Of a stretch of DNA of 45,057 nt, positions 1 to 2,768 are shown piece by piece. Position 1 is the first letter of the stretch, and each line of letters opens with the position of its first letter. The translations under genes were made by a program, and so were the position numbers. Source of the DNA: Escherichia phage Eeyore; the sequence record PP925821.1; one strand, given 5' to 3'. Under the pieces are notes generated by a model. That model ran no database searches and was not told the DNA's origin. It worked only from the letters and a program-made list of their open reading frames with translations.

Positions 1-687
1 ATGGGGAAAGGGGACTTCACTTTTTACGCGGGGAAATACGTTTTTATCGGCGATAGCTTTGAGTTTCGCAACCCCATTACCTGTCAAAATAGCATCAGCG
101 CATCTGCAAAAATAGCGACCACTGCTGATATGGAATGCAAAACTAAAATCGCTGTTTTGGCACCGGCTGACAATCAAAATGCCCATGTATGGTTCTATGG
201 CACAGGTGGGGCATCCAGGGGGGTTATTTATTCCGGGCAAACAGGAATTATTCAGATCCGTCCCGACAATAATGATAACGGCGGCTCCAACGGATACTCT
301 TTTGCATTTGGGGCCGATGGTAAGTTTACCTGCGTCACGATGAACCAGACCTCAGATGAGCGAGTAAAATTCGATAAAGAGCCCGTCAGTAACGCTCTGG
401 AGAAGATTTGTTCCCTGACGGGTTATACGTTCGGCATTCAGCTCACAGAATCTGAGTCGGTACGTAGCGCAGGCATCATCGCACAGGAACTGGAGCAGGT
501 TCTGCCGATCGCTGTGAGTTCTGGCGGCACCGGAACAACACCTGCAGGAGAGGAAATTAACGATCTCAAAACCGTGGACTACAGCGCAATGAGCGCCCTC
601 TACGTTGAGGCAATCAAGGAATTAACCAACCGGTTGAAAAGTGTTGAGAGCGAACTTACTGCAATACGTGACCGCTCAAACGCTTAG
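1..687 (+). CDS. Tail-fibre alternative C-terminal cassette 2 (3' part), with peptidase-S74-type intramolecular chaperone domain; 5' part appears to be 44902..45057
   Basis: Frame-1 ORF from position 1. Motifs TSDERVKFD...GYTFGIQ...GIIAQELEQVLP...VDYSAMSALYVEAIKEL match the autoproteolytic chaperone domain of tail fibres/endosialidases. Stop TAG 685-687 overlaps the stop of the convergent cassette (TTAG). Confidence 0.6.
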   Translation: MGKGDFTFYAGKYVFIGDSFEFRNPITCQNSISASAKIATTADMECKTKIAVLAPADNQNAHVWFYGTGGASRGVIYSGQTGIIQIRPDNNDNGGSNGYSFAFGADGKFTCVTMNQTSDERVKFDKEPVSNALEKICSLTGYTFGIQLTESESVRSAGIIAQELEQVLPIAVSSGGTGTTPAGEEINDLKTVDYSAMSALYVEAIKELTNRLKSVESELTAIRDRSNA

Positions 688-1337
688 TTTCTTGTCTTAT
701 CTTCTAAAGCCCCGACGCGGATTGCCAGGGCTTTTATCGCGGCCAGCGCATCGAGCAACATGGGGGTCTGGTCGAGATGCAGCAGGCCGCCAATATCTTT
801 GACGTATTCAGGGTCGATAGTTTCAATCTGCTGAGATATCACCCCGCGCCGTGGGGTCTGCGTTTCATCATCCTTAAAAGTGAAGTGTTTGAACTCCATC
901 CGTGAAATGTTGCCCAGCGCCTCTTCTGGATCGAGGTCGTCACCAATATTTTTCATAATTCTGTCTGAAACTGCAGACGTCATTATCTCCTTCCATGGGC
1001 TCCATGTATCAGTGTTGTAACCCCTGAAAAAAAACCTTCCCGCATCAGTTTTGTTGGCATACGGCAAGCAGAACTGCGTCAAGGCTACATCAGGAATACG
1101 AACATAATTTTGAACATACCCATACCAGCTGGTGATAGGTCCTGAAGTTGATTTCGCCATATCTAACAGCAAACGATATGTACCAGGTTCAGTCAGGGCA
1201 TTGAAATTTGTCCCGTCAGGAGCAACTGCCATATCTGTTTTAAAGGCTCTGGCATCACCAGTTGGCAACCCGAATGCCCCCACCTGCATGACGTTCCCGG
1301 CTGCGCCGCCTGCATCCAGCGTGGCGCTACTTCCCAA
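684..1337 (-). CDS. Tail-fibre alternative C-terminal cassette 3 (inverted, promoterless), S74-like chaperone domain
   Basis: ORF begins at TTG; the open frame continues to 1349 through the gix-like site, encoding IKVGLGSSAT, the same junction peptide as the other cassettes. C-terminal VSDRIMKNIG...GVISQQIETIDPEYV...LLDALAAIKAL resembles S74 chaperone domains. Confidence 0.5.
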   Translation of the reverse strand: MGSSATLDAGGAAGNVMQVGAFGLPTGDARAFKTDMAVAPDGTNFNALTEPGTYRLLLDMAKSTSGPITSWYGYVQNYVRIPDVALTQFCLPYANKTDAGRFFFRGYNTDTWSPWKEIMTSAVSDRIMKNIGDDLDPEEALGNISRMEFKHFTFKDDETQTPRRGVISQQIETIDPEYVKDIGGLLHLDQTPMLLDALAAIKALAIRVGALEDKTRN

Positions 1338-1354
1338 ACCGACCTTTATTCACC
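1321..1354 (-). repeat. gix/hix-like recombination site C (inverted orientation)
   Basis: Reverse complement ggtgaataaaggtcggtttgggaagtagcgccac; first 23 nt identical to 44897..44919. Core tcggttt resembles the Mu gix core AAACCTCGGTTTA. Confidence 0.6.
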
Positions 1355-2083
1355 TTCATCCGTAGTCATTGCCAGTTCTGTGGCCCTGAGTTTTTGGTTG
1401 TACAAAGAATCGGCAGGCATCTCGACACGGACGGACAAAAACTGGTCATGGGGGATATCGACCGGATCGCCATTGTTGATACCCAGCAGTTCGTTCCTGG
1501 CGAACGCTGGCGCGTCAGGATACGTGCGGTGAAAGGTTTTCACCAGCACCGAGCCGTCAGCGTTAACCTCATAATCCAGCCAGATCAGCGGCTGCTTGTT
1601 ACGGTCTGTAGGAATGTCAAAACCGCCATCGATTCCGCCCCAGGCTGCGTCAGAGTTCAACCCTTCACACCCTTCGATAAGATACTGCCCTACGTCCAGA
1701 CGGATGACCTTTATGCCTTCGGATTCATCATTGGTTTGGTATGCACCATCCGAAAATACTTTCACCACAGGCGATGCTGCTTTCAGTGTGCCATCGCTGG
1801 CCCTCGTGGTATTGCCCGTGGTGTAAGCCTCCTGATATGACCAGGACGTGCCACCGTAATACGAAAACCACGTCCGCCTTAGAATGTAGGCCTGATGAAT
1901 ACGGGTTGGTCGGCTGCCCCGATTGACGACTATAGACGTAATACCGGTATTTGCAGTTAACCCGAGCTGGGTCTGTCCGTCATTTTGATGGGAGGAGAAA
2001 CAGGTCGGTGTAAATGCGTCCATAGCGTCCAACAGTGGGCCGTCTCCGTTGATAGTTCCAAGCCCAAATGCGCCCACTTGCAT
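1346..2083 (-). CDS. Tail-fibre alternative C-terminal cassette 4 (inverted, promoterless); paralogue of the expressed cassette 1
   Basis: C-terminal ~140 aa (ASPVVKVF...GQYLIEGCEGLN...KQPLIWLDYEVNADGSVLVKT...DEGE) near-identical to the C-terminus of 43619..44905; N-terminal ~100 aa divergent. Open frame extends to 2140 through site D, encoding NVGLGSSAT. Confidence 0.6.
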   Translation of the reverse strand: MQVGAFGLGTINGDGPLLDAMDAFTPTCFSSHQNDGQTQLGLTANTGITSIVVNRGSRPTRIHQAYILRRTWFSYYGGTSWSYQEAYTTGNTTRASDGTLKAASPVVKVFSDGAYQTNDESEGIKVIRLDVGQYLIEGCEGLNSDAAWGGIDGGFDIPTDRNKQPLIWLDYEVNADGSVLVKTFHRTYPDAPAFARNELLGINNGDPVDIPHDQFLSVRVEMPADSLYNQKLRATELAMTTDEGE

Positions 2084-2116
2084 GATGTTCCCGGCAGTCG
2101 TTCCGACGTCCTTTGT

Positions 2117-2146
2117 CGCGCTACTTCCTAAACCGACGTTTTATAG
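2117..2146 (-). repeat. gix/hix-like recombination site D (inverted), just upstream of the invertase gene
   Basis: cgcgctacTTCCTAAACCGACGTTTTATAG compared with Mu gixL TTCCTGTAAACCGAGGTTTTGGATAA (recalled). Its reverse complement matches site A at 44086..44113 (cggtttaggaagtag shared). Confidence 0.6.
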
Positions 2147-2213
2147 ATTGCCCTGGGGCAGCCTGGCCGATAACGTCACCTGATTTTTTCTTACAAAAAG
2201 GTGACTAAAAAAC

Positions 2214-2768
2214 ATGCAATATGGGTATGCAAGGGTATCAACTTTTGACCAAAATCTTGAATTACAGTTAGAGGCGCTAAATCGGTCAGAATGTGACCAG
2301 ATATTTGAGGATAAAATATCCGGAGCGAAGTCAAAACGTCCTGGCCTGGATAAGATGATGAAGTTATTGCGGCCAGGTGACACCGTCATCGTCTGGAAGC
2401 TAGACCGGCTCGGTCGATCACTCATACACCTCGTCGATTTACTGCGCTATTTCCGGGCTAATAATATTGAATTTGTCTCAATCACTGAGGGAATAAGGAT
2501 CAGCACGTCAATCGGCAGATTCGCATACACAATGTTGAGTGCTGCGGCTGAGATGGAAAGAGAAAATATTATTGAAAGAACAAGGGCAGGTTTAGCCGTG
2601 GCAAGGGCAAAAGGGAGAATAGGTGGGAGGCGTCCAAAGTTAACACCAGAACAATGGGCGCAGGCTGGGAGATTAATATCAAACGGCGTGGATAGAAAAC
2701 AGGTGGCAATAATTTATGATGTGGCTGTATGCACGCTTTATAAAAAATTTCCGGTGGGGCAGGCTTAA
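2214..2768 (+). CDS. Site-specific DNA invertase, serine recombinase of the Gin/Pin/Hin/Cin family
   Basis: 184 aa; GYARVST catalytic-Ser motif, VWKLDRLGRS, C-terminal HTH (GRIGGRRPKLT...VAIIYDVAVCTLYKK); strong resemblance to Gin/Hin. Sits ~70 bp from site D, as gin does beside the Mu G segment. Confidence 0.9.
   Translation: MQYGYARVSTFDQNLELQLEALNRSECDQIFEDKISGAKSKRPGLDKMMKLLRPGDTVIVWKLDRLGRSLIHLVDLLRYFRANNIEFVSITEGIRISTSIGRFAYTMLSAAAEMERENIIERTRAGLAVARAKGRIGGRRPKLTPEQWAQAGRLISNGVDRKQVAIIYDVAVCTLYKKFPVGQA

Follow-up and report, generated by a model that had tools for sequence, protein, structure and literature searches.

The 45,057-nucleotide genome sequence of Escherichia phage Eeyore (PP925821.1) is referred to here, at its full length, as the window. 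It contains an invertible tail-fibre module, which consists of the constant 5' part of a tail-fibre gene (Sc), four alternative 3' cassettes (A to D), four crossover sites and an adjacent gene for a Gin-family serine DNA invertase. The window (~45 kb) represents a complete lambdoid phage genome in circularly permuted form, and the joint between its two ends (45057 to 1) sits within the silent cassette B, i.e. inside the invertible region. Read across this joint, the parts of the module are as follows:

43619..44093, plus strand: Sc, the constant 5' segment of the fibre gene, encoding the N-terminal 158 amino acids and ending ...EDARTN(L)
44082-44107, plus strand: site 1, CTCGCACAAACC TC GGTTTAGGAAGT, with the Sc-type left flank
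44094..44905, plus strand: cassette A, joined to Sc and hence expressed; the protein has 428 amino acids and a PF25670 tip (E 2e-60)
44897-44922, plus strand: site 2, GGTGAATAAAGG TC GGTTTGGGAGAC, with a tail-type left flank that includes the cassette A stop codon
44909..45057 (5' part) plus 1..687 (3' part), plus strand: cassette B, silent, with a Peptidase_S74 chaperone domain (PF13884)
684..1342, minus strand: cassette C, silent and inverted, with an S74 chaperone domain; its stop codon overlaps that of the converging cassette B
1329-1354, minus strand (inverted): site 3, with a tail-type left flank that includes the cassette D stop codon
1346..2136, minus strand: cassette D, silent and inverted, with a PF25670 tip
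2123-2148, minus strand (inverted): site 4, with the invertase-proximal left flank (ATCTATAAAACG)
2214..2768, plus strand: Gin-family serine DNA invertase, 184 amino acids (PF00239; PF02796, HTH_7; phrog_125, DNA invertase)
2232..2303, strand unassigned: putative recombinational (Fis) enhancer, proposed from a gapless alignment to the annotated P1 cin enhancer

The initial annotation of this DNA placed the module at positions 1-2768, and its boundaries have to be redrawn. The frame of cassette B starts at 44909 and continues uninterrupted through the joint, with the open reading frame (ORF) at 1-687 as its 3' part, and homologues in other contigs likewise extend across the joint, so that the feature at 1-2768 is one half of a module that spans 43619-45057 plus 1-2768. 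The region 20176-44105 is 96% identical to Escherichia phage Flotzy and 95–97% identical to LLS, mEp213 and mEp043, with phi80 close behind. The similarity to mEp213 and Flotzy ends at about 44105, and the 96% backbone identity to Flotzy picks up again from position 2821. A megablast search with 1-2800 against phages, plasmids and 5,426 complete E. coli genomes yielded fragments only and no close relative of the whole module.

The expressed fibre ORF (43619-44905) matches phrog_1591 (tail fibre) with an E-value of 1e-175, and its Sc part is conserved at 74–100% nucleotide identity across 73 IMG/VR contigs. The tip of cassette A matches the C-terminus of PDB 7Z47, a ‘putative tail fiber’ (E 1e-64), and cassette B matches PDB 6F45, a long tail fibre distal subunit. 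Cassettes A and D share 54% protein identity, B and C are unrelated except for their S74 domains, and no separate assembly-chaperone gene accompanies any of the four. Each cassette is an open frame that begins with (L/V)GLG(S/D)SA in the orientation of its site and runs to a stop codon; B, C and D are silent in place because a stop codon lies directly upstream of each head. Joining Sc to the four heads at the TC core produces four single in-frame ORFs of 428 (A), 436 (B), 377 (C) and 421 (D) amino acids, and the four alternative C-termini that had been proposed are indeed present, intact and in frame with the constant part. The accompanying statement that the silent cassettes lie between the two inverted sites is correct for D only, C being located beyond site 3 (from 1342 down to 684).

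For every cassette, an end-to-end homologue is found fused to the Sc junction, i.e. in the expressed position, in some other contig (the related contigs and loci compared with the window carry designations between L006 and L144). The homologue of A is 94.8% identical over its full length in L014 and L033, that of C 96.8% over its full length in L016, and that of D 91.2% over its full length in L006; homologues of B are 84–91% identical in L065, L049 and L026, with 90.9% in L065. Decay of the cassettes into pseudogene fragments, which the initial annotation had raised as a possible objection, can be ruled out: all four are full length and all have expressed homologues.

The head sequence TCGGTTTRGGARNNAGNGC, taken as a pattern, has exactly four matches in the 45 kb window (44094+, 44909+, 1342- and 2136-), compared with 0.01 expected by chance, and these define four 26-bp sites in the orientation ++--, i.e. 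the two direct and two inverted sites anticipated earlier. All four have the core TC and a shared 19-nt head consensus, and the junction peptides encoded at the sites are NLGLGSSAL, KVGLGDSAT, KVGLGSSAT and NVGLGSSAT. The left flanks are of three fixed kinds, namely the Sc end CGCTCGCACAAACC, the tail-type flank AAGGTGAATAAAGG, which includes the stop codon of a PF25670 cassette, and the invertase-proximal flank CAATCTATAAAACG; between the end of site 4 and the invertase ATG there are 65 bp. The central 13-mer of site 1, AAACCTCGGTTTA, is identical to that of Mu gixL and is read in the same frame, as NLGL, in Mu S and in this fibre.

The sites were compared with the published 26-mers of the Din family (PMC3241671, Table 3), and the alignment bears out the predicted relationship: the window sites match known Din sites at 10–19 of 26 positions, the cassette-side half matches pix at 8–11 of 12 positions, and the core, GA/TC in all four, is that of gix and bix. 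One arm of each site carries GGTTT and the opposite arm AAACC, AAAGG or AAACG, in correspondence with the inner AAAC(C)/GTTT arms that surround the 2-bp core in this family. The half-site that faces away from the cassette is degenerate, as in the mix sites of p15B (PMC3241671). The crossover sites of the PacBio-confirmed prophage inversions in E. coli EC958, which include GATAAACGTT/GGTTTGGGGGAA and ACCTC/GGTTTACGAGAA (PMC4134206), are very similar to those of the window.

The gene at 2214-2768 keeps the Gin/Pin-family assignment that it had received. The protein, close in size to the small serine recombinases of the Din systems (about 185–195 amino acids), combines an N-terminal resolvase domain (PF00239, E 3e-45) with a C-terminal HTH_7 domain (PF02796, E 8e-13) and aligns end to end with the Mu Gin structures PDB 3UJ3/4M6F, across residues 2-182 (E 1e-64). 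The catalytic Ser9 is retained, the motif YARVSTFDQ being aligned to YVRVSTNDQ of Gin chain 4M6F (the corresponding residue of chain 3UJ3 is Ala). The nearest invertase among GenBank phages, 83% identical, is that of Yersinia phage vB_YpM_44, which has a classical two-state segment with fibre and chaperone genes facing their alternates. The enhancer annotated in P1 corresponds to nucleotides 19-90 of cin, and the window invertase aligns without gaps both to this stretch and to Mu gin. Among 46 distinct invertase genes of the clade, synonymous codon diversity is lowest at codons 7-30 (0.25, compared with 0.40–0.53 elsewhere; Mann-Whitney p = 3e-6) and reaches zero at codons 9, 12, 25 and 26, a pattern that is consistent with, but not conclusive for, an overlapping DNA signal. 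A promoter and terminator consensus scan of 1-3400 stayed at background level, and the hairpin ahead of the invertase start codon lacks statistical significance (z = -0.4).

The arrangement is best explained as a Min-like multiple-inversion host-range switch in a lambdoid phage of the phi80/mEp213 type, an interpretation to which a probability of about 0.8 can be attached; the system is real and probably active. The promoter-linked Sc terminates in a crossover site, and three more sites, one direct and two inverted, each head a promoterless fibre 3' cassette. The adjacent invertase would pair oppositely oriented sites, cut at the common central TC and invert the intervening DNA, probably acting together with the host Fis protein on an enhancer within the 5' portion of the invertase gene itself; the dependence on Fis would be expected by analogy with other members of the family. 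The products (Sc-A, Sc-B, Sc-C and Sc-D) are always in frame because the point of recombination is at the second and third positions of the Leu/Val codon in ...N(L/V)GLG.... The tips are self-contained, B and C by virtue of the S74 intramolecular chaperone and A and D through the PF25670 tip, and the four would presumably differ in receptor specificity.

Successive inversions, as had been suggested, could bring any cassette to the constant N-terminus. A simulation of repeated inversions between oppositely oriented sites, starting from the window arrangement, reaches 12 arrangements and all four tips: four arrangements express A, another four express D, and two each express B and C; a single inversion is needed for the expression of C or D and two for that of B. 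The only site-orientation patterns that arise in the simulation are ++--, +--- and +++-, and exactly these are represented among the four-site relatives: ++-- in L076, L089 and L114, +--- in L080 and L125, and +++- in L099 and in the combination of L132 and L140, two contigs that overlap over 2,750 bp at 100% identity. The combined L132 and L140 sequence contains the four cassette families of the window (A at 89%, a D-like cassette at 79%, B at 82% and C at 82–83%) in the order A, D, B/C, an order separated by two inversions from that of the window. The complete modules in the Sc-anchored sample comprise 22 with two sites, four with three sites and none with four, so that the four-site state is uncommon.

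Evidence of inversion comes from closely related loci. In at least 10 pairs of contigs, 97–100% identical, the sole difference is that the segment between homologous sites is inverted. The inverted segment is 1,401 bp long and 99.7% identical in L029 compared with L035, L008 and L040, and 1,487 bp long in L016 compared with L026; further inversion sets are L024/L028, L025/L032/L073, L089/L120, L094/L124 and L104/L141, and the members of L088/L115/L134 are inversion isomers at 100% identity. The three-site pair L074/L090 (99.7–99.9% identical; L074 is the E. coli chromosome LR536430) is the most telling, in that its members differ by the inversion of one segment and the translocation of the other in unchanged orientation; to account for this, two inversions in succession are needed, one of them via an internal tail-type site. 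This internal site has the sequence of window sites 2 and 3. The use of internal sites is seen in this three-site pair and is implied, as far as arrangements can tell, by the four-site relatives with all three orientation patterns.

One of the four-site relatives, L089 (IMGVR_UViG_2582580857_000008), carries one cassette twice, in opposite orientations and at 99.4% identity, and the near-identical L120 has one copy. The doubled cassette is either a real duplication or the result of mixed isomers merged in assembly.

Several observations weigh against the interpretation of the module as an active four-tip switch. The outer half-site positions compare poorly with the Din consensus, and the left half of sites 2 and 3 has AAAGG instead of AAACC. 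Identity over the putative enhancer, 44 of 72 positions with P1 and 47 of 72 with Mu (61–65%), is barely over the gene-wide 57–58%, and the low synonymous diversity at codons 7-30 overlies a general 5'-to-3' gradient, the gradual climb along the gene being the reason why the case for an overlapping signal is not conclusive. No sigma-70-like invertase promoter is predicted between site 4 and the ATG. Finally, no isomer of this exact phage was found: the 27-mer at the B/C junction is unmatched in IMG/VR and metagenome contigs, and the 30-mer that adjoins site 4 has a single match, in L075, a 92% relative in which the homology is bounded by site 4.

The degenerate AAAGG half-site of the internal sites 2 and 3 could mean that the switch is only partly active, with recombination limited to some pairs of sites (e.g. 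1 and 4); in that case, B and C would be expressed rarely or never, and the module would amount to a switch with two or three states. In their left halves, sites 2 and 3 agree with known Din half-sites at just 1–7 of 12 positions, and the rarity of four-site modules, with none among about 30 complete modules of the Sc-anchored sample, points the same way. However, the same tail-type site sequence has recombined in L074/L090 and in a number of further three-site pairs, both B and C are undamaged, with homologues in the expressed position, and the mix sites of p15B also combine one conserved with one degenerate half (PMC3241671). A partly active switch therefore seems unlikely, although it is the most plausible of the alternatives. 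Considerably less credible is a frozen relic, in which cassettes were gathered by horizontal exchange at a conserved fibre motif, the invertase is inactive in this phage and only A is made. The boundaries of the mosaic do coincide with the sites, and Flotzy (L112, PP925827; locus 1303-2586), which shares the backbone, retains a single fibre gene with the junction mutated to AAACCTCGATCTAGGA and without an invertase. In the window, however, the invertase ORF is intact and keeps its catalytic motif, the core and the 19-nt head consensus are the same in all four sites, the silent cassettes are undecayed, and inversion is evidently ongoing in close relatives, some of which form 100% identical pairs.

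The least probable explanation, to which hardly any weight can be given, is an assembly artefact, whereby a mixture of isomers was assembled into a chimeric order or the cassette content was inflated. Spurious contigs from mixed isomers are known (PMC4134206), the doubled cassette of L089 could be of this kind, and the joint of the window lies within the invertible region. Nevertheless, the four cassette sequences are distinct and each site has a unique flank, so that the content is not a duplication; the same four cassette families recur in L132 and L140; and any order assembled from a mixture of isomers is itself a legitimate isomer.

Among the characterized systems, the module is closer to Min of p15B (described by Sandmeier, Iida and Arber in 1990–92) than to the two-state segments of Mu and P1, as had been argued initially, and ‘Min-like’ is an accurate label. 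The two systems share a Din-family serine invertase beside overlapping invertible segments in a tail-fibre gene, more than two crossover sites, each with one conserved and one variable half, and successive inversions that permute the segments and swap the C-terminus of the fibre. The p15B Min system is reported to form about 240 isomers. It differs from the module described here in having six mix sites (PMC3241671, Table 3), as opposed to four sites and 12 isomers, a core AA rather than GA/TC, and a P1-like plasmid prophage rather than a lambdoid siphophage as its carrier; moreover, the cassettes of the window are single self-chaperoning ORFs without U/tfa assembly-chaperone genes. The Mu G/Gin and P1 C/Cin systems resemble the module in that the invertase gene flanks the segment, the region equivalent to their enhancer (putative in the window) lying in its 5' end; the window invertase matches Gin end to end, and site 1 has the gixL central 13-mer and the NLGL frame. 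In Mu and P1, two sites give two states, with Sv plus U in each half, whereas the window has four sites and four tips and no U.

Phage LLS (PQ299149; PMC12315714) belongs to the same lineage, with structural genes about 95% identical, an adjacent ‘Fin’ invertase and the same Sc-type and invertase-proximal sites, annotated there as IR-L and IR-R; it contains just two sites and one pair of opposed cassettes, to which the window adds two internal sites and two cassettes, and tip switching was proposed by its authors (PMC12315714). The P2-like prophage locus of enteropathogenic E. coli (EPEC) E2348/69 has more than two inverted repeats and is the counterpart of the common three-site modules of the relatives; sequencing and polymerase chain reaction confirmed that four variants coexist there and that the C-terminus has three alternative forms (PMC4272514). 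Its backbone is that of a P2-like myophage, and it has one site and one cassette fewer than the window. The initial description of the module as ‘shufflon-like’ holds as an analogy, the R64 shufflon likewise combining multiple inverted repeats, permuting segments and several alternative C-termini of one protein. It fails as a statement of family: shufflons use the tyrosine recombinase Rci, acting in R64 on sfx repeats and on the pilus adhesin PilV, and membership in this family is ruled out by the serine invertase of the window.

The mechanism itself is already known from Min of p15B, the three-repeat EPEC prophage locus and LLS, and its understanding is unchanged by the present case. What the module shows is that lambdoid siphophages of E. 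coli can hold four interchangeable receptor-binding tips in less than 4 kb, with one invertase, this compactness being due to the fact that the tips need no separate assembly chaperone. Such modules are relevant for the prediction of the host range of temperate phages and could serve as compact natural parts for the engineering of phages with a switchable host range. They also call for caution in annotation, where silent cassettes appear as ‘tail fiber’ or ‘hypothetical’ genes in their own right, and in assembly, where mixed isomers may break or scramble the result.

The crossover sites may also serve as junctions for the exchange and stacking of whole cassettes between phages, although this extension is tentative and rather doubtful at present. 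The PF25670 cassettes carry a head half-site at the 5' end and, overlapping their own stop codon, a conserved ‘landing’ half-site, so that arrays of two, three or four sites could gain or lose cassettes as whole units, in a manner reminiscent of an integron, with receptor-binding tips as its cargo. A copy of cassette D that is fused to Sc in L123 (1447-2267, compared with 2141-1321 in the window) is 98.4% identical at the nucleotide level from site to site; the Sc of L123 is 92% identical and its next cassette 74%. Exchange between phages appears, from these sequence comparisons, to proceed cassette by cassette and to be bounded by the sites. Nearly all of the internal sites surveyed follow a PF25670 cassette, the exceptions, with another left flank, being L066, L080, L099, L125 and L139, and L116 is the same module minus D.

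In the GTDB genomes, the 19-mer of the tail-type site is found only in two representative genomes (L143 and L144), on one contig binned as Muribaculaceae and on a 614-bp scaffold of a Geodermatophilus assembly. The contig, from a metagenome-assembled genome, is probably mis-binned and gave no recognisable site or window similarity in scans; the scaffold is 83–91% identical to window cassettes and is therefore probably contaminant enterobacterial phage DNA.

Outside the module, a tRNA search found none. LexA-box-like palindromes, TACTGTATATGTATACAG and GACTGTATATGCAAACAG, lie at 3131-3150 and 3939-3956, with zero expected by chance, and further ones at 10829-10846 on the minus strand and 20325-20342 on the plus strand. 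The first of them is located between a DinI-like gene (2811-3293, minus strand) and the plus-strand ORFs 3174-3413 and 3413-3733, the latter UmuD-like, which suggests, judging from position and similarity, SOS-controlled accessory genes directly downstream of the invertase. The mechanically called ORF 2811-3293 encodes 160 amino acids, with the DinI domain confined to residues 89-149; the Flotzy homologue is annotated with 88 amino acids, so that the true start is probably internal. Just upstream of the fibre gene, a lipoprotein ORF of 120 amino acids (43130-43492, minus strand; MKRLFAAIFLLLAGCSS...; phrog_25729, function unknown) overlaps the end of ORF 42524-43165 and occupies the same place as the exclusion lipoprotein gene cor in the prophage L074, which makes it a candidate superinfection-exclusion gene.

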